IMG/VR virus record: IMGVR_UViG_2529292726_000021 | Reading direction: 5' to 3' (one strand) | DNA from: a virus | Taxonomy: Duplodnaviria; Heunggongvirae; Uroviricota; Caudoviricetes | DNA length: 42,272 nucleotides | Part shown: piece by piece, positions 2,391-41,950 of the stretch | Layout: each line of letters starts with the position of its first letter | Numbering within the stretch: the stretch's first letter is position 1 | The notes under the pieces: generated by a model | Seen by the model: only the letters and a program-made list of their open reading frames with translations | The model's database searches: none | Told to the model about the DNA's origin: nothing | Position numbers and translations under genes: made by a program

Positions 2391-2559
2391 AACATTGATA
2401 ATGGCGGTCACAATTTGATTCTTTTCTATAAGAATCCGTTGATCGCCACTACTCCCCTTCCATACCTGCAATCACATCCTTAAATATCAATAGGTTATAG
2501 TTATTTATACCAATAAGAAAACAACTGAATAACAGATCAACGAAACGTCAACGCTTTCA

Positions 2560-3340
2560 CCCGATTTGGTCTAAAAAATTGACGTTTTCACACATCACTT
2601 CTTATACCCGTAATTCTACGCAGCAGATAGCGCCACAGCGTCCAATTTTCACCACAGACGACCCAACACACTACCAACAAAAACACACGCTCAAAATCGC
2701 TCCCGTTGCGTTACATAACCATATAAACAACTTATTTTCAGGCATAACAAAACAACTAAATAACACACATGCCATTCCCAAAAACAACCAACCTCTTTAT
2801 GGCAGGCTACCGAAAAGACCCACCTCTTCTCCCCAGGCTACCGGACAACCAACCTAACTTTCACAGGCAATCCGAAAACATTCATACGCGCGATACCCAC
2901 GACACGCCATTCCCCAAACAGCGAAGAAACACCAGAATCACTGAAACCCCAACGAAGCCTGTAACCGCAAGGATTCTCTCAATCCCAAAAGACACGAAAC
3001 ATAACAATCACGGGAAACGCCATTACCCAATACACGAATAACTACAAAAGCCTTTCACACACTCCAGACAAACAACTCAAACACAATAACGAAAGGAATC
3101 GCCCACCTGCCATTACTCCATACACGGAGAAGAACAATCACCAAAACGACGAGAACACCCCATAGAAGAACCACCGCAAAACGAACGAAACCACATACAC
3201 CGACAGAGAAAACAACACACCCAATTCACCAACAGAAATAGTCGCCGTATAGAACGTTCTGGAAGGAGTGAGCATTAACGCCTATAGAGAGGTTGAGACA
3301 GATAAAACACAACATGTATAGCGAAGAAGCCAGGTATGTA
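2560..3340 (+). other. A+C-rich, G/T-poor strand-asymmetric tract; candidate non-coding transcript or protein-binding region
   Basis: Sampled 60-nt lines are about 80% A+C on the plus strand; degenerate repeats GCCATT(C/A)CCCAA at about 2772, 2908, 3020, 3110; half copy of the early motif (AAGAAAACAAC, 2515-2525) just upstream. Confidence 0.35.
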
Positions 3341-3353
3341 TAAGTGGGGAGGG

Positions 3354-3378
3354 AAGGAGGGGTGTCGCCTCCTTTTTC
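3354..3378 (+). terminator. candidate terminator hairpin at end of the A+C tract
   Basis: AAGGAGG-ggtgtcg-CCTCCTT followed by a T run; preceded by G-run GGGGAGGGAAGGAGGGG. Confidence 0.4.
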
Positions 3379-3440
3379 GTATTTATTCAACTCCTGATTT
3401 TATCCCCCCGTAACACCCCTACGGTCAGCCTTCGGTCCAT

Positions 3441-3580
3441 ACAGGGAAAAGGTTGCATCCCGCTACAGAAACGGCTGGGTTGCCTTCGGGGAACGGCTGG
3501 AGGTTTTCAGGGAAACGGTCGAGTTGCCTGTGTGGATTTCGGGAAAAGGCTCGATGCCGGTTCAGGAACGGTGGCGTACC
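3441..3580. repeat. iteron-like direct repeat array 1 (six ~21-23 bp imperfect units)
   Basis: Units GGGAAAAGGTTG, AGAAACGGCTGG, GGGGAACGGCTGG, GGGAAACGGTCG, GGGAAAAGGCTCG, GGAACGGTGGCG spaced about two helical turns apart. Confidence 0.6.
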
Positions 3581-3888
3581 GGTATAGCGAGAGGGAGAGT
3601 TGCGGCTACCCACCTGTAATGTGCGGGAAGAAGAGAGGCGCTCACGTGCAGGCGGACTTGCTTACCGCTGGATTCCCTCTGAATGCCAGCTACAGCGTAA
3701 TTGTGCCAGACAGCCAACGGGTCACAATCGATTTCAGTAGGTTTTCGGGGAGAGGATTATTCTGCCCCCCAGCCACTTTCGGCCACTAAATCAGAATAAT
3801 GTAAAAAGTGTACTCGGTACTGAACCTGAAAACTCACTGCCAAAACCACATTCACCGGAATAAAATCCTTTTTCGCCTGTGTGTTATT

Positions 3889-3927
3889 GCGATAATAACA
3901 CCATCAAGAAAACATGTTGTTTAAGGA
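3889..3927 (+). promoter_or_regulatory. early promoter/leader module, copy
   Basis: GCGATAATAACACCATC followed by AAGAAAACAtgTTGTTTAAGGA; ATG at 3935. Confidence 0.5.
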
Positions 3928-3934
3928 TTGCTTT

Positions 3935-4264
3935 ATGTTTGCAAATATCGACATCAACCAAATCAAGAAAATGACTCAAAAAGAGTTTGACCAGTTTTAT
4001 GAGCTGGAAGGTTGGTCTTCCACTCTGATTAATTCAAGATGGGTGCTGGAACTGATGACTCGTGATGACGCACCTGCTTTGATGATCAGCGACCTGGGTG
4101 AAGATGCTGACTTTATGGATATGAGCGAATTTTGTGTGGACACATACAACCGCAGCCAGAAGTACTACTTCACATGCGATAGCGAAAATGACGTGATTTC
4201 TAAGGTCTATCTTCACCTCGTCCAGCATTGGGACGTTCAGGACTTCCTTGAGATGTTCGCGTAA
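3935..4264 (+). CDS. hypothetical small acidic protein (109 aa)
   Basis: Start moved from track ATG 3914 (inside the motif) to ATG 3935, which has AAGGA 8 nt upstream. Confidence 0.55.
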   Translation: MFANIDINQIKKMTQKEFDQFYELEGWSSTLINSRWVLELMTRDDAPALMISDLGEDADFMDMSEFCVDTYNRSQKYYFTCDSENDVISKVYLHLVQHWDVQDFLEMFA

Positions 4265-4273
4265 ACTCAACCA

Positions 4274-4300
4274 AAGCCAGCATTGCTGGCTTAATTTCTC
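4274..4300 (+). terminator. candidate terminator
   Basis: AAGCCAGCA-tt-GCTGGCTT hairpin followed by AATTTCTCT. Confidence 0.45.
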
Positions 4301-4373
4301 TATAGCCGCAGGGAAGAACCTGCATATAGCTCATGCACCTGATCAATATGCTTTGTAGCCGTTTTCTTACTGG

Positions 4374-4412
4374 TATTATTTACGCCATTGAGAAAACAAG
4401 TTGTTTACGGAG
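4374..4412 (+). promoter_or_regulatory. early promoter/leader module, copy
   Basis: GAGAAAACAAGTTGTTTACGGAG immediately before ATG 4418. Confidence 0.5.
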
Positions 4413-4417
4413 TTGTG

Positions 4418-4729
4418 ATGAAAAAATCATTGGTTCTTGGTCTGGACAAAGACCAGAAGAGAAAAGAGAAGCCTGCGCTGGTTGCTCAATTAACTTTGCT
4501 GGACATCGTTGCCAATGGAACCTCTATTCGTCTGTTCCGTGAAACAGCGGTGTCTTTCGATAAAAACACCTTTACTCGTTATGTAATGAATGTTCGTCGC
4601 CAGCGTGGAAAAGGCTGGGTGGCATTTCAAAGAATGTGGCCGGAACATCAGCTCGAACTGGCTTTGATGGAAGTTAACCGCGTGGCCCAGCAAGAGATTC
4701 AGAGAGCATCAGTGATGGCAATAGCCTGA
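4418..4729 (+). CDS. hypothetical small basic protein (103 aa)
   Basis: Track ORF starts at a TTG inside the motif (4388); ATG at 4418 with ACGGAG upstream preferred. Confidence 0.55.
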   Translation: MKKSLVLGLDKDQKRKEKPALVAQLTLLDIVANGTSIRLFRETAVSFDKNTFTRYVMNVRRQRGKGWVAFQRMWPEHQLELALMEVNRVAQQEIQRASVMAIA

Positions 4730-4765
4730 TAATGTGCAAGTGGTAATTAGTCGACCGTACGACAG

Positions 4766-4792
4766 CCCCGCCATCCTTACGGGGTTTTTTTG
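4766..4792 (+). terminator. rho-independent terminator
   Basis: CCCCG-ccatcctta-CGGGG followed by TTTTTTT. Confidence 0.75.
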
Positions 4793-4855
4793 TATTGTAA
4801 GTACATACTTACGATCATAGAATATAAAAATAACCAATACACTACGGAGAGTGAA

Positions 4856-5251
4856 ATGACCGTTAAACGCGAAAAACTGACAGTTGATGTTTACTATGCC
4901 TCTGAAACCGCCGAAGGTAAGAATGTGGCAAAAATCACCGTTGTTACGTACAACACCGAAACTGGTGCCGAAGTACAGGCCAGTACGATCGTGCGTAAAT
5001 GTGATGCCTCCGGCGGCGAGTACGCGACTCAATACCAGTCCATTCTCGATGCAACTGACCCGCTGCTGCTGAAAATCGAGAACTACTTCCGCCAGGTTGA
5101 TGAAGAGGTGTTTGAAACCATGATGAATATGGTTAATTCCGTATTCACCTCCAGCCTGAACACCAGCACCACCTGGATTGGTCAGTACGGCCTGCGCATT
5201 ACCTCTGGCATTCCTGCTGACACCTTAATCCCTGAAAGCGTATTCGCTTAA
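4856..5251 (+). CDS. hypothetical protein (131 aa)
   Basis: ATG 4856 with ACGGAGAG upstream; track ORF start 4790 lies in the terminator region and is unlikely. Confidence 0.6.
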   Translation: MTVKREKLTVDVYYASETAEGKNVAKITVVTYNTETGAEVQASTIVRKCDASGGEYATQYQSILDATDPLLLKIENYFRQVDEEVFETMMNMVNSVFTSSLNTSTTWIGQYGLRITSGIPADTLIPESVFA

Positions 5252-5260
5252 TCCTCTTTA

Positions 5261-5288
5261 AATGGCGCGTAAACCGCGCCATTTTCTT
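5261..5288 (+). terminator. rho-independent terminator
   Basis: AATGGCGCG-taaa-CCGCGCCATT followed by TTTCTT. Confidence 0.75.
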
Positions 5289-5296
5289 ATACCCGA

Positions 5297-5359
5297 TAAC
5301 AATTTGTTTTCTACCTTATCTACACTGCGATAATTACAACAACAAGAAAACAAGAGGAA
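5297..5359 (+). promoter_or_regulatory. early promoter/leader module, copy
   Basis: ATAACAAtTTGTTTTCTACC (5297-5315), GATAAT (5329-5334), AAGAAAACAAGAGG (5345-5358); ATG 5365. Confidence 0.5.
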
Positions 5360-5364
5360 AGCAG

Positions 5365-5559
5365 ATGAAAACTATTACTCAAGTACAGCAAATCTGGGCG
5401 CAGCTAGCAAATGAGCCTGTGGATAACAATCAGCAGCTTGAGCGTGCATTTCACCATTTTGAAGCCGGTGACAGCATCATTGACGTGTGGGTGTGGATCG
5501 ACGGGCTGTGTCCAGATATCACCGTTGCACAGTTGCAGGAGATGGGGCACGATGACTGA
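5365..5559 (+). CDS. hypothetical small protein (64 aa)
   Basis: ATG with AGAGGAAAG upstream. Confidence 0.5.
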   Translation: MKTITQVQQIWAQLANEPVDNNQQLERAFHHFEAGDSIIDVWVWIDGLCPDITVAQLQEMGHDD

Positions 5560-5637
5560 TCTCACCATTACCCCAAAAGCACAAAATGTATTCCTTGAAT
5601 CATGGCTGGATTTGCCGCATTAAGTGAGAGTATTACG

Positions 5638-5901
5638 ATGGCAAAATTGACCAGAGCGCAGGAGCATGACCTGCGACGCGCAATTTATGATCTTGAAAGG
5701 GGGATCGCGTATCTGCGACACCCAAAAACTGCGGTTTGCTATCGCCACGATTACCCTGCAACTACCACATCGGCATATTCATCGCACGACGGGAAGACAT
5801 CACTTTCCCCTGTTTGCATCGACTACGGCTCGAATATCGTCGGTCTTTATCATGCGCTAGAAACGTTGAAAGAGTTCGTTGCAGCACATCGAAAGCAATG
5901 A
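5638..5901 (+). CDS. hypothetical small protein (87 aa)
   Basis: Internal ATG 5638 preceded by GTGAGAG preferred over track start 5602, which lacks an SD; start uncertain. Confidence 0.45.
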   Translation: MAKLTRAQEHDLRRAIYDLERGIAYLRHPKTAVCYRHDYPATTTSAYSSHDGKTSLSPVCIDYGSNIVGLYHALETLKEFVAAHRKQ

Positions 5902-6030
5902 TATATAGGCTGCCAATGCTGGTGGCCTTAAATGACCATCCTGTTCCACGCAGGCTAAAAACACCAACCTCTTACCTCTAGGCAACCGACAAACCCACCT
6001 GTTCCCGTCCGGCTACCGCAACTTTCCACT

Positions 6031-6090
6031 TTGACGCCTTATTCGTACAACGATAATTAACACCAACAAGAAAACAATTTGTTATTTACG
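6031..6090 (+). promoter_or_regulatory. early promoter/leader module, copy with sigma70-like -35
   Basis: TTGACG (6031-6036), 17 bp, TAATTA within CGATAATTAACACCAAC, then AAGAAAACAAtTTGTTATTTACG (6068-6090); ATG 6105. Confidence 0.55.
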
Positions 6091-6104
6091 ATAAGGAATT
6101 AATC

Positions 6105-6587
6105 ATGAATTTTATCGCTACTGTAAACGCACCCGCACATGGCAATATCGCTGTAACGTTCTCTGACATTGAAAAACGAGTACTTGGTGCATGGCGCGAC
6201 AATGAGACGGTAGAACTGTCAGCACAAGAAAAATGCAATATTGCACGCGACATCATTGGCAATCGTCGTTACTCGCGGGTATTTGAGAAAGCGTATGTGG
6301 TAAATTCTGGATTCGGAACGTTCGTCTTTCCGGTGCGCTCCGGGCGATTCTGCCAGTCCAAGCTGATTGAGTTCGCTACGCAGATTTCTTTCTGGATTAA
6401 AACTCAATCGTCGTTCAAATTTTCCGACGATGAAGCAGTATCGCAGGGGATGCGGATCGCCAACAATGCGATTAAATGCAAAAACATTACGTATACCGCT
6501 GGCGTTGATACATGGAAACTGTTTTGCGCTAACTTTATGCTGAATGTATACGCAAGCAACCGCATCCACATCCTTGATGGCGTGTAA
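6105..6587 (+). CDS. hypothetical protein (160 aa)
   Basis: ATG with AAGGAA 7 nt upstream; no motif recognised. Confidence 0.6.
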   Translation: MNFIATVNAPAHGNIAVTFSDIEKRVLGAWRDNETVELSAQEKCNIARDIIGNRRYSRVFEKAYVVNSGFGTFVFPVRSGRFCQSKLIEFATQISFWIKTQSSFKFSDDEAVSQGMRIANNAIKCKNITYTAGVDTWKLFCANFMLNVYASNRIHILDGV

Positions 6588-6596
6588 CTGAGAAGA

Positions 6597-6618
6597 GGGC
6601 CAGAAACGGCCCTTTATC
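6597..6618 (+). terminator. candidate terminator
   Basis: GGGCC-agaaac-GGCCC followed by TTTATCT. Confidence 0.45.
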
Positions 6619-6636
6619 TATAGCCACCAGCTGCCG

Positions 6637-6761
6637 CAGGGAAATTTTCAGAAGCGGCGAGGAACGTATTCATGAGCCGACGGGGGAACGGCCAGGATTT
6701 TTTCGGGAAACGGCTGCATTCGCCTTTGTGTAGAAAAAACATCGGGAAGCTGGTGGAATCC
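6637..6761. repeat. iteron-like direct repeat array 2
   Basis: GGGGGAACGGCCAGG, GGGAAACGGCTGCATTCGCC, GGGAAGCTGGTGGAATCC share the GGRAAMGGYTG core of array 1. Confidence 0.55.
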
Positions 6762-6842: not shown

Positions 6843-6897
6843 TAATCACATATGTGATTAAGTGGTGTGATTATGTGAAAAATCACGCGCACATAAT
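6843..6897. promoter_or_regulatory. cluster of palindromic operator-like sites
   Basis: Perfect 18-bp palindrome TAATCACATATGTGATTA (6843-6860) followed by further TGTGATTA / CACATAAT half-sites. Confidence 0.45.
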
Positions 6898-8655: not shown

Positions 8656-9174
8656 TTAAAACGGAAGGATTCGTTCAACCCAATCGAAGAAAATAAGTAT
8701 TTTTCTACCGTCTTCCAACTTAAGTGTGACTAGACAGGCGTCAACGCCATCTGACGTTCCCTCAATTTCGCGACCGTCTGCCATGTAGACCCTTATAGAT
8801 TTGCCGTTTTGGTAAGCCTGACGACATATCTTAAAAAAGTCACGACGTGATGGCTGATTAACCATCTGTTCATTGTTTAGCGTTAGTCGACCTGTGAATG
8901 AAGTGTCAACCTCTTCTATGCCCGACTCAATTGTGCTAATGCGCTCAAGAGGGAGCCTTATACGATTTGTGTTGCTAAGCGGATCTGGTGTGAGGTTCAG
9001 CTTATTTCTTGCGCTCAATAGCCCGTAGACATACATGCAAAACACTTGGCCGTCTTCGAGAGTGACTCTTACAGGAAATTTTGCACTCCGCCAGAAGAGC
9101 AAGGTGCGCTCAGCATGTTCGTAGTCTCGCGGCCAGACTTCAGCCGGTATGCCGTAGGTGATGTCTTTAACCAT
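8656..9174 (-). CDS. hypothetical protein (172 aa) with internal repeat
   Basis: ATG with AAGG upstream; two related segments (VRVTLEDGQVFCMYVY and VTLKLEDGRKILIFFDWV). Confidence 0.55.
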   Translation of the reverse strand: MVKDITYGIPAEVWPRDYEHAERTLLFWRSAKFPVRVTLEDGQVFCMYVYGLLSARNKLNLTPDPLSNTNRIRLPLERISTIESGIEEVDTSFTGRLTLNNEQMVNQPSRRDFFKICRQAYQNGKSIRVYMADGREIEGTSDGVDACLVTLKLEDGRKILIFFDWVERILPF

Positions 9175-13764: not shown

Positions 13765-13846
13765 AAACCTCTTTCCTTAGTGCCTTTTGTATGTTATTTG
13801 GCTATTATAATAAGTAAGTGATTACTTAGTGGATTGTAGCAATAAA

Positions 13847-14527
13847 ATGGATGTAAAAATCACGATTTTGCAGGTTGATGTTGCCAACCTTCGCCCGAAT
13901 ACCTGGAACACCAATTCGGTTGGTGCGCAGAATTTTGAAAAACTGAAAGGTTCTATCGAAAAATTGGGCTTTTTTAAGCCAATTTTGGCTCGTGAACTTG
14001 AAGATGGATTTTTTGAAATCCTCGGCGGCGAACATCGCTGGCGTGCCGCTATTGAGCAAGGAATTTCAACGGTTCCAGTGCTTTCTGTGGGCAAAATTAG
14101 CGATGTCGTAGCTAAACAGATGTCACTGGTGGACAACGAGCGATACGGTGAAGACGACCAAATCGCATTGCAACGCTTCATTGAAGAAATTCAGTCAGAA
14201 CTTGACTATCAACTGTCTGAAATCGCCCCGTATGACGACGAAATCTCGATGGTTTTAGCAAAAGAGGCGGCAATCGACCTTGAAGCACTGGAGGCGTTGT
14301 CTCGTGGTAGTGATGAGCCTGTCGATACCGACAAACGAGAGAAAACCGAACGTGTCGGTGCGGAACATCAGACCATGCGCTTCAAAGTAACTTTCGATGC
14401 GTCAGATCGCGTTGCAGAAACCATAAAAAACATCATCAAAGAGCAGGCTATTAACACCGGTAATGAAATGGAGAACGCTGGTGAGGCTCTGGTGTGGCTG
14501 GTCGACTACTACAAGGAGCGTATGTAA
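13847..14527 (+). CDS. ParB-like N-terminal domain protein
   Basis: GGEHRWRAA resembles the ParB/sulfiredoxin GxxRxxA box; start ambiguous (GTG 13829 or ATG 13847). Confidence 0.55.
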   Translation: MDVKITILQVDVANLRPNTWNTNSVGAQNFEKLKGSIEKLGFFKPILARELEDGFFEILGGEHRWRAAIEQGISTVPVLSVGKISDVVAKQMSLVDNERYGEDDQIALQRFIEEIQSELDYQLSEIAPYDDEISMVLAKEAAIDLEALEALSRGSDEPVDTDKREKTERVGAEHQTMRFKVTFDASDRVAETIKNIIKEQAINTGNEMENAGEALVWLVDYYKERM

Positions 14528-15195
14528 TGACCAAAAAGTTTGAAATCGTATATCGCGACCCGGCAGATCTTATTCCCTATGAGATGAATGCCAAAAAGCA
14601 TGATGAACAGCAGATCAGAGATCTGGCCGCAGCCATTAAAAAGCGCGGATTTGACCAGCCAATTACGGTCGATAAGAACGACGTAATTATTACTGGCCAC
14701 GGCCTCCGTGAGGCTGCAATTTTTGCTGGACTTGAGCGCGTACCGGTTATTGTTCGTGATGATCTGAGTGATGACGAGGTACGTGCAAAGCGCCTTGAAG
14801 ATAACCGACTTGCCAGCATTGATTACGATGCAATTAAGCTACAGAAAGAGCTTGAGTCGCTTGTTCTGGACGATATCGAGGTTTTCGGCTTCGAAGAGCG
14901 TGAGTTGAATGTTCTCGTTGGCAGTATGACAGAAGAAATGGACACCGACTCGCTAGTTATCGATCTTGGCGAAGAAACTAAACGACAGAAGGATGAACAC
15001 ACCGAGATCAGTCGTGAAGTTGCAGCGGAAGAAGTACGTGTTGTCGACGTATTGGGCTTTAAAACGCTTCCTGCTGGCTCTGCCATTGTTGTTGGTGATT
15101 TGCTTGCCCACATGGAAGAAATGACGGGAGAAAGCGGGGTAGACGCATTTGTGGCATATGCGGAGAAGATCTCTTCCGGGGAGATGGCTGCATGA
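14527..15195 (+). CDS. second ParB-like domain protein
   Basis: TGHGLREAA box; ATG overlaps the preceding stop (TAATG); track start 14494 would overlap the upstream gene. Confidence 0.5.
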   Translation: MTKKFEIVYRDPADLIPYEMNAKKHDEQQIRDLAAAIKKRGFDQPITVDKNDVIITGHGLREAAIFAGLERVPVIVRDDLSDDEVRAKRLEDNRLASIDYDAIKLQKELESLVLDDIEVFGFEERELNVLVGSMTEEMDTDSLVIDLGEETKRQKDEHTEISREVAAEEVRVVDVLGFKTLPAGSAIVVGDLLAHMEEMTGESGVDAFVAYAEKISSGEMAA

Positions 15196-39590: not shown

Positions 39591-41950
39591 ATGTGGTACA
39601 GGGAAGGTACTATCACATTTACACAGGGTAGCAATACTCTGGTTGGGGCAGGGACAGCCTGGAACGTAACAGCTAATGGTGTGTTGCCGGGGATGATCGT
39701 CATTGGCCCCGACAATAAGCTGTATGAGATCAAGCGCGTAACCAGTGATACGAACATTGTTCTCTCAGAACCTTATACCGGCGAAACTCAGTCTGAAGTT
39801 CCGTGCCGAATCATTACGACCTATGAAGGCGACTTAACACAGTTTAGCGCGCGCTTTACTGCGCTAATGTCGCGTATGTCGGCTGATTCCAAGTCCATAC
39901 GCAGTTGGTTGACTGCGCTGGATGAGGTGACAATCGAGCGTGAAGACGGTACAGAAGTGACCGTTAAGCCGCTAATGCAGATCGTCAACGAGCACAACGA
40001 AAACGTTGAGTGGTATAAAAATAACACTGACGCGATTGATGCTGCTGGCGACAAAGCTCGTGAGGCGGCGGCCAGTGCTGCCGCAGCAGCCAAAAGCGCC
40101 AATGCCGCTGGAGAAAAAGCCTCTCAAGCGTCTCAAAGTGCATCCGCTGCGGCATCCTCACAAAGTGCCGCAAGTGCGAGTGCAACTGCTGCGAAAAAAT
40201 CTGAAACGAATGCTGCAGCGTCACAAAAATCTGCAGCCACTTCTGCATCCACCGCGACCACGAAGGCGTCAGAAGCTGCCACCTCAGCCCGGGATGCGGC
40301 GGCCTCAAAAGAGGCAGCGAAATCATCAGAAACGAGCGCAGCCTCGAGCGCCAGTAATGCCGCTTCCTCGGCAACGGCGGCAGGAAATTCCGCGAAGGCG
40401 GCAAAAACGTCCGAGACGAACGCCAGGTCTTCTGAAACGGCAGCGGGACAGAGCGCCTCGGCTGCGGCAGGCTCAAAAACAGCGGCTGCGTCGTCTGCCA
40501 GTGCCGCGTCAACAAGTGCCGGGCAGGCCTCAGCCAGTGCCACCGCCGCCGGAAAATCGGCAGAAAGTGCCGCATCGTCTGCTTCAACTGCCACAACGAA
40601 GGCTGGCCAAGCCACTGAACAGGCCAGCGCAGCAGCGAGGTCTGCTTCCGCAGCGAAGACATCCGAAACGAACGCGAAAGCGTCGGAAACCCGTGCAGAA
40701 TCCTCAAAAACGGCAGCCGCATCGTCCGCCAGTTCGGCGGCGTCATCGGCATCATCGGCGTCTGCTTCAAAAGATGAGGCGACCAGACAGGCGTCAGCAG
40801 CGAAGGGCAGCGCCACGACGGCATCCACGAAAGCAACAGAGGCGGCAGGCAGTGCGACGGCAGCATCTCAGAGCAAAACTGCTGCTGAATCCGCTGCGAC
40901 CCGTGCGGAAGCTGCTGCTGATCGTGCTGAAGAGATTGCCGGTGCAGTTGCGATGGAAGACGCAAGCCTTACAACTAAAGGTGTTGTGAAACTTAGCAGT
41001 GCTGTCGACAGCACCAGTGAATCGCTGGCCGCAACGCCAAAAGCAGTTAAAGCAGCCAATGACAATGCGAATAGCAGGGTGCCATCTAACCGAAAAGTTA
41101 ACGGTAAAGCACTGACTGCGGATATCAAATTAACGCCGAAAGATATTGGTACTTTAAATTCAGTAACGATGTCTTTCTCTGGCGGGGCAGGGTGGTTCAA
41201 ACTGGCTACGGTTACCATGCCACAAGCGAGTTCCATCGTTTACATCGCATTGATTGGTGGCGCTGGTTACAACGTCGGCTCCCCACATCAGGCAGGCATT
41301 TCAGAACTGGTTCTACGAGCAGGCAATGGAAACCCCAAAGGGATTACAGGTGCTTTGTGGAAGCGTACAGCTGTCGGATTAACGAATTTCGCCTGGATCA
41401 ACACATCCGGCGATACATATGATATTTACGTTGAGATTGGCAATTATGCGACTCGTGTAAATATCCATTGGGATTGTACTGCAAATGCGACAGTTTCTAT
41501 TTATACATCGCCAACATATTCAGCGAGTAAGCCTTCCAGCGTTACCGATGGTGTTGTTTATACGATGTATAGCACACATCAGAAACCGACGCCGTTAGAT
41601 ATTGGAGCACTGCCAACAACCGGAGGAACAGTTTCAGGTCCGTTGTCTGTTACAGGTGGATTAACTGGTTCATTGAATGGTAATGCAAGTACAGCCACGA
41701 AATTGCAGACGGCAAGATCTATCGGTGGAGTTGTTTTCGACGGTTCTGCAAATATTAACCTTCCAGGTGTAAACACTACGGGTAATCAGAACACCACTGG
41801 TAATGCTGCAACTGCTACAAAACTTCAGACGGCAAGAACTATCGGCGGCGTGAGCTTTGATGGTACTGCGAATATTAATTTGCCAGGTGTTAATACGACT
41901 GGTAATCAGAACACAACGGGCAACGCGGCTACTGCTACGAAGTTGCAGAC
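39591..41950 (+). pseudogene. side tail fibre (Stf-like) gene truncated at the 3' end by IS2
   Basis: ATG with AAGGAG upstream; long Ala/Ser-rich repeat region with recurring KTSETNA units; TKLQTAR(S/T)IGGV...NTTGNQNTTGNAATA repeats; frame runs into the IS2 end at 41951. Confidence 0.75.

Follow-up and report, generated by a model that had tools for sequence, protein, structure and literature searches.

What purpose do the short direct repeats at positions 3,441 to 3,580 of the viral record IMGVR_UViG_2529292726_000021 serve? The 42,272 nucleotides of this caudoviricete DNA that were analyzed are called the window here, and a preliminary description of it had taken the repeats for an iteron-like array and for a candidate replication origin or binding platform. 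Judged by similarity, the window is part of a phage-plasmid of the SSU5/pHCM2/pLF82 type, because region 2400–3950 is 97% identical to Escherichia phage Cyrano (pLF82) and partially similar to Salmonella phage SSU5, and because a plasmid collection search returned 839 records matching the 1.5-kb region around the repeats (from Klebsiella, Escherichia, Enterobacter, Salmonella, including pHCM2, Citrobacter and Cronobacter), almost all of them typed as non-mobilizable and each one that was opened being IncFIB. The repeats (array 1) have a paralogous partner (array 2), and we tentatively propose that the pair are candidate protein-docking arrays on DNA, possibly serving phage-mode replication. 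Phage-plasmids of this type are common in clinical Klebsiella, E. coli, Salmonella and Enterobacter, and a pair of conserved arrays distinct from the RepA origin would offer a deletable handle on phage-mode replication, or on partition or regulation, as well as a diagnostic sequence signature for the SSU5-type family. A search of the available papers found no description of the array region, of a lytic origin or of an RNA in SSU5-type elements.

Two Paralogous Arrays in Conserved Non-coding DNA

Array 1 consists of six units on the same strand with the extended consensus YCRGGGAAAMGGCTGG, whose cores read, in order, GGGAAAAGG, AGAAACGG, GGGGAACGG, GGGAAACGG, GGGAAAAGG and AGGAACGG (coordinates in Table 1); the degenerate seventh unit lies at about 3585–3600. 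The six same-strand repeats of the preliminary description are therefore confirmed, while their spacing is 22, 22, 22, 31 and 22 rather than a uniform 21 bp. Its core, GGRAAMGGYTG, fits the units at 3445, 3467, 3489, 3511 and 3542 with at most one mismatch, and only the unit at 3564 departs from it, needing two. This pattern has 13 matches in the whole window against 5.0 expected, a number that none of 100 shuffles reached. For the 7-mer GRAAMGG, 6 of the 20 window-wide matches fall inside 130 bp and all of these are on the plus strand, a clustering with a Poisson P of about 1e-12 (about 7e-10 when corrected for all positions). Tandem Repeats Finder does not call array 1 because its units are less than 70% alike, and a general repeat search recovers it only as the partial families D3, D5 and D6. 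The units have a period of 22 bp, and about two-thirds of them contain a short dyad (GGC N5-7 GCC or CGGT N5 ACCG) with arms of only 3–4 bp.

The second array, which the preliminary description did not contain, was found by a scan with the extended motif and directly follows a conserved gene for a 160-amino-acid (aa) protein. Its units v3 and v4 (CGGGGGAACGGCCAGGATTTTTTCGGGAAACGGCTGCATTCGCCTTTGTGTAGA) align base for base with the third and fourth units of array 1. It is present in SSU5, in Cyrano and in all SSU5-like loci with enough sequence, 3.0–4.2 kb downstream of array 1, and both arrays are kept even in a relative whose neighboring 160-aa protein is only 50% identical. The complete 108-kb pLF82 contains GGGAAAMGG five times, always within the two arrays and always on one strand. 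The G-rich hairpins that precede the arrays are likewise paralogous. Since the 31-nt tandem repeats, the hairpin and the array each have a paralogous partner, comparison of the two copies indicates that a larger module (repeats, hairpin and array) was duplicated.

The gene-free region that holds array 1 is conserved across elements from Escherichia, Salmonella, Klebsiella, Enterobacter, Citrobacter, Kluyvera and Buttiauxella. In an eight-genome alignment the invariant blocks are G.GAAA.GG, A.CGG, GGG.AA.GGCTGG, GAAACGG and CGGGAAA.GGCT, and the spacers between them vary; among 14 non-redundant representative relatives, invariant columns make up 32 of 54 in the cores and 15 of 86 in the spacers (Mann-Whitney P = 2e-7). 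Natural variants drop whole units, namely 22 nt (L014), 44 nt (L035) and 53 nt, or 31 + 22 (a Buttiauxella contig). The 22-22-22-31-22 spacing is retained in the Escherichia, pHCM2, Kluyvera and Buttiauxella lineages. With conserved cores, variable spacers, a non-coding setting and retention in relatives, the iteron-like architecture claimed for the locus holds up, and its spacing of about two helical turns is roughly true in most lineages.

Whether the array lies within a conserved coding gene, which would have spoken against the preliminary description, was checked, and it does not: the variable sites show no three-base periodicity (23/29/27 by codon phase, P = 0.73), several reading frames are open across array 1, as expected for G-rich DNA, indels of 1 nt and 22 nt break the frame between close relatives, and whole units are lost in natural variants. 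A protein-coding tandem repeat is rejected on the same periodicity and indels. It is very improbable, in our estimate, that the array has no function and is a decaying tandem duplication, or that it is part of a mis-annotated gene. The open frames across the G-rich array and the hypothetical proteins annotated in some records would suit this explanation (the Cyrano annotation has two hypothetical open reading frames (ORFs), of which CYRAN_104 overlaps array 1), but the cores do not vary between genera in either of the two paralogous copies, codon periodicity is lacking, frames are broken in close relatives, and the PGAP annotations usually place no gene there.

One variant that seemed to have lost the array (L011) proved to carry an IS21-like insertion rather than a deletion. 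Ends of the same insertion sequence adjoin array 1 in two independent contigs, L011 (at about window position 3417) and L038 (after array 1). In a Yersinia pestis relative (L175, NCTC5923 contig), array 2 and the FljA-like gene described below are kept, and no match to the 1.5-kb region or to array 1 was found within 8 kb. It seems from this that the plasmid can be maintained without array 1, unless that relative carries the array at a more distant position.

A Candidate Docking Platform for Protein on DNA

In the docking arrangement that we propose, several copies of one element-encoded, sequence-specific protein would bind side by side, about two helical turns apart in most lineages, and the flanking terminators would keep incoming transcription from sweeping the bound protein off. 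A platform of this kind is suggested by the clustering of the motif beyond chance, its confinement to two arrays, the retention of cores while the spacers drift and the loss of whole units. Sites on DNA, rather than on a transcript, are favored by the 22-bp register in most lineages, the lack of any special RNA fold, the upstream hairpins and a lysogen RNA sequencing (RNA-seq) signal near background. More speculatively, the array pair may form a two-part lytic origin or accessory site, in the manner of the P4 ori and crr or of the lambda O iterons, a site from which the replisome that the element itself encodes (Pol III alpha, DnaB-like helicase, primase and SSB) would work separately from the RepA/oriR replicon that maintains the plasmid. 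This idea is favored since the element encodes those replisome proteins, together with a UvsY-like protein, and has no annotated lytic origin, since array 1 looks dispensable, and since 22-bp arrays occur in O-like genes.

The flanking structures are consistent with such a role. The predicted folding free energy of the array 1 hairpin is −9 to −17 kcal/mol on the plus strand against −3 to −12 kcal/mol on the minus strand in 9 of 10 lineage variants, the complementary strand folding much worse because the plus-strand fold uses G-U pairs. A stronger terminator-like hairpin stands before array 2 in all three lineages tested. Array 2 occupies a tail-to-tail gene junction, with no gene reading out of it, and right of it is a minus-strand terminator-like hairpin with a U-rich run. 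Given the plus-strand hairpins upstream, the tail-to-tail junction and this hairpin beyond array 2, the arrays appear, on structure prediction, to be shielded from transcription.

The same surroundings bear on a role in transcription control, in which the arrays would be operator or activator arrays, or a roadblock, bounding the variable small-gene cassette region 3914–6587. The arrays do bracket hypervariable small genes, each with its own promoter cassette, and adjoin other regulatory-looking elements. No gene reads out of the junction that holds array 2, however, and the recurrent promoter-proximal motif of the element is a different one, AAGAAAACAAnnTGTT, so that we regard this explanation as improbable. 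That palindromic motif has 10 occurrences against 0.63 expected (window positions 1281, 3906, 4390, 6068, 12178 on the minus strand, 17135 and 17160), usually 25–35 nt ahead of a start codon; it also precedes the ParA-like gene (pLF82 ~32460), and it is probably the element's own operator or promoter element.

Two known systems provide models for a lytic site. The lambda origin sits within the O initiator gene, and in contigs of lambdoid prophages we found 22-bp arrays (ATGGAAACGGCGAAGTCGCCGA) within genes assigned by PHROGs to the class 'replication initiation O-like'. These arrays (L164, L081, L151, L115) share with ours four to six direct repeats, the 22-bp period, the core GGAAACGGC, a short dyad (GGC N5-7 GCC) after the core, and tandem half-cores. 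Those of L164 (10223–10354) and L115 (886–981) are presumably the origins of their prophages. By analogy, the comparison shows that real origin iterons can look like the arrays described here, although theirs lie inside the coding sequence of an initiator and ours are non-coding, with no O-like homologue in the window or pLF82. In satellite phage P4, ori and crr are two iteron clusters ~4.5 kb apart (iteron TGTTCACC), both bound by the alpha primase-helicase. Our arrays resemble them as two clusters of the same motif, 3–4 kb apart and separate from a Rep-type plasmid origin, and differ in that P4 has a known binder, whereas the primase and helicase of the present element are separate proteins.

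Several results weigh against the docking proposal and keep it tentative. The likeness to O-type iterons is partly built in, because the pattern used to scan viral contigs required the shared core (the scan returned mostly coding hexamer repeats, and only the O-like prophage arrays were informative). For the binder, tblastn found no O-like initiator in the window or in pLF82, and the conserved neighbors of 160 aa and 216 aa matched no known family or fold: the predicted fold of the 160-aa protein has no PDB match, PDB sequence searches with the 216-aa protein and a 246-aa protein found nothing, and PHROGs lists the array-neighbor proteins as of unknown function. The window has 2 DnaA-box-like sites where 4.6 would be expected, and neither is at the array. 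The cumulative GC skew declines monotonically away from repA in step with gene orientation and does not turn at the arrays; as a guide to the origin it is uninformative. The most divergent relative, L052, retains the cores but spaces them irregularly (36, 27, 6, 17, 33), so that helical phasing is not a conserved requirement and sites on RNA fit at least as well. Both arrays are oriented along transcription, and no U-run accompanies the hairpin before array 1 in elements of the pHCM2 type, which makes insulation doubtful there.

Table 1. Positions of the arrays and associated features in the window.
Feature	Position	Strand	Remarks
Gene-free region holding array 1	2391–3913	+	1.5 kb; 66–99% identity in the 839 plasmid records
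A/C-rich, G/T-poor untranslated stretch	2600–3250	+	Upstream of hairpin and array 1; GCCATTAC...ACGGAGAAGAAC repeats
Three 31-nt tandem repeats	2782–2873	+	ACCCACCTCTT...CAGGCTACCG; paralogous pair at ~5945–6020, upstream of the 160-aa gene and array 2
G-rich hairpin with T-run, terminator-like	3351–3378	+	From terminator scan; just upstream of array 1
Conserved spacer between hairpin and array 1	3379–3440		A+T-rich block CGTATTTATTCAACTCCTGATTTTAT; ATTCAA and TTTT invariant
Array 1	3441–3585	+	Six cores at 3445, 3467, 3489, 3511, 3542 and 3564, then a degenerate seventh unit
Array 2	6597–6756	+	Cores at 6639, 6650, 6660, 6684, 6706 and 6744; opens with a hairpin
Hairpin opening array 2	6597–6612	+	GGGCC-AGAAAC-GGCCC
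Two ParB_N proteins	13829–14527, 14494–15195		

A Possible RNA Platform and the FljA Homologue

It is conceivable, if doubtful, that the arrays act as RNA instead. They would then be transcribed after induction in long untranslated RNAs, carried by the G-poor, A/C-rich leader in the case of array 1 and by the 3' tail of the 160-aa gene in the case of array 2, and single-stranded GGGAAAMGG would be bound by an FljA-family neighbor, the RNA serving as a sponge or assembly platform. We hold as still more doubtful the specific form in which these induced transcripts are a multi-site platform or sponge for that protein as a tandem Sm/Hfq-like protein. The neighbor in question, encoded at 8656–9174 on the minus strand and syntenic in all relatives, is an FljA homologue (Pfam Flag1_repress, E = 1e-68) and is predicted to be such a tandem Sm/Hfq-like protein. 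FljA is reported, in work cited in PMC2652032, to block translation of fliC mRNA. If true, this reading would mean a phage-plasmid-encoded Hfq-like protein with a dedicated decoy RNA, possibly tying the prophage state to host flagellin control.

Further features of the locus suit an RNA. The common orientation of both arrays with transcription, the irregular core spacing in L052 and the missing U-run of the pHCM2-type hairpin all count in its favor, as does the G-poor, repeat-rich leader upstream. This stretch of ~650 nt has a GC skew reaching −0.56 and an AT skew reaching +0.61, and it is kept where the 160-aa protein is only 50% identical; it resembles a long G-poor untranslated leader and would suit as a Rho-loading substrate. 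The best match of the E. coli fliC 5' untranslated region (5'UTR) in the window also falls in array 2 (TGAGCCGACGGG-GGAA), with a score of 27 against a mean of 14.4 (standard deviation 2.2), but a match scoring 26 lies elsewhere in the window and the one in array 2 is lost in the SSU5, Buttiauxella and Klebsiella lineages, which leaves it a lead, not evidence. The identity itself comprises the twelve bases TGAGCCGACGGG within 6672–6688 and is confined to the Escherichia lineage.

An RNA platform has against it the terminator-like hairpin directly upstream of each array and the RNA-seq of an LF82 lysogen, where signal is close to background over the array-bearing part and no higher than the detection floor over the A/C-rich part (PMC9928086, S1 table). 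Nor does the co-occurrence of FljA and the arrays count as independent evidence, since the genome scan yielded only SSU5-like loci and the sole FljA-like locus found off a plasmid is a degraded SSU5-like insert. The array, ~330 nt ahead of the next gene and separated from it by a promoter cassette, is also poorly placed for a translational operator.

Structure prediction is also unfavorable. Shuffling the sequence does not lower the folding stability of either array, whichever strand is taken (z = +0.49, +0.88, −0.75), and RNAalifold gave no convincing covarying structure within the array and no per-unit hairpin common to the lineages. For 14 representatives it does predict long-range helices between the 31-nt repeats and the array, but these repeats show no significant direct or reverse-complement similarity to the array (z at most 1.3), and the single helix with a compensatory change, 2921–2929 with 3372–3380, competes with the local hairpin. 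A structured RNA was rejected on these grounds. No Rfam covariance model reaches its gathering threshold, and relaxing the cut-off to E = 10 brings in only noise; with no CsrB, Rsm or other family matched, and no stable or covarying structure presenting the motifs, a known RNA family was rejected as well. The arrays do resemble sponge RNAs (CsrB/RsmZ for CsrA, CrcZ for Hfq) in their short purine motifs (CAGGGA, CAGGA) every ~20 nt, in the long G-poor untranslated stretch adjoining them and in the predicted Hfq-like protein encoded nearby. They differ from them in the lack of an Rfam match, in a core that extends beyond GGA, in the low lysogen signal and in the terminator upstream.

A Rejected Plasmid Origin and an Unlikely Partition Site

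An array of ~20-bp direct repeats in a plasmid invites comparison with the iterons of its replication initiator. The preliminary description had seen no recognizable initiator, which was an artefact of the window: near-identical pLF82 carries repA at 31–1086, ~33 kb from the arrays and beyond the window's limits. On either side of this gene are ATCCACTATAGAGAG-type iterons and TTATCCACA boxes (DnaA boxes), which are unrelated to GGGAAAMGG. Sequence comparison at repA thus rules out RepA iterons and an incA-like control site, and on that comparison the arrays are neither the plasmid origin nor a RepA control locus. Apart from the generally iteron-like look of array 1, and a window that happens to omit repA, nothing recommends it as the origin or incA-like copy-number control of an IncFIB-type RepA, an explanation that we find hardly credible; the earlier candidacy as an origin fails in this sense. 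The arrays and the element's own IncFIB/P1-like RepA iterons have in common that they are ~20-bp direct repeats, but their sequences are unrelated, and the DnaA boxes are found at the RepA locus, not at the arrays. The A+T-rich DNA adjoining array 1 is limited to a 25-bp block, short of a RepA-type unwinding region.

Partition sites are another class of DNA built from such repeats. Direct repeats ~20 bp apart are typical of type Ib/II centromeres (pSK41 parC, TP228 parH), and phage-plasmid N15 has scattered centromeres. Our arrays might likewise be dispersed centromeres bound by the adaptor of a small ParA-type ATPase, or by the ParB_N proteins, and they share with these systems the tandem direct repeats, along which bound protein would line up on a single helix face, at more than one site per replicon. 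In further support of this, the arrays are terminator-insulated, and pLF82 encodes a ParA/MipZ-like ATPase with a 117-aa partner in an operon that has no obvious repeat array upstream. That operon (pLF82 31.4–32.4 kb), however, is 39–43 kb from the arrays (71.0 and 74.7 kb), which do not adjoin it and so are not its operator; array 1 appears absent from the Y. pestis relative; and the ParB_N genes have the terminase genes as neighbors, suggesting that their products take part in packaging or DNA modification. We consider partition unlikely. A site of the chromosomal or P1 ParB-parS type was rejected, as the units are asymmetric direct repeats and not parS-like palindromes, with no 16-bp palindrome and no box A/box B layout.

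Neighboring Features

Array 2 lies among further sequence features. Chi sites (GCTGGTGG) number 9 in the window against 0.96 expected, including those at 5918, 6624 (minus strand) and 6749, and array 2 is enclosed by an inverted Chi pair, which other lineages conserve as well. A Chi density of this order is typical of E. coli DNA, and the array units are merely Chi-like, so that the array as a cluster of Chi sites was rejected in spite of the enrichment. Just right of array 2, at 6847–6895, is a cluster of AATCACA/TGTGATT palindromes (ATCACATATGTGAT and others) that resembles operators or hairpins.

The genes upstream of the non-coding region vary among lineages. In the present element the window starts with a methionyl-tRNA synthetase gene (40–1149), a cargo gene annotated metG in pLF82, followed by a gene for a DUF5983 protein (1311–1610). 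At the other end of the window, 41690–41950 holds a 120-bp tandem repeat (2.2 copies, 76% matches) within the 845-aa ORF that closes the tail gene block.
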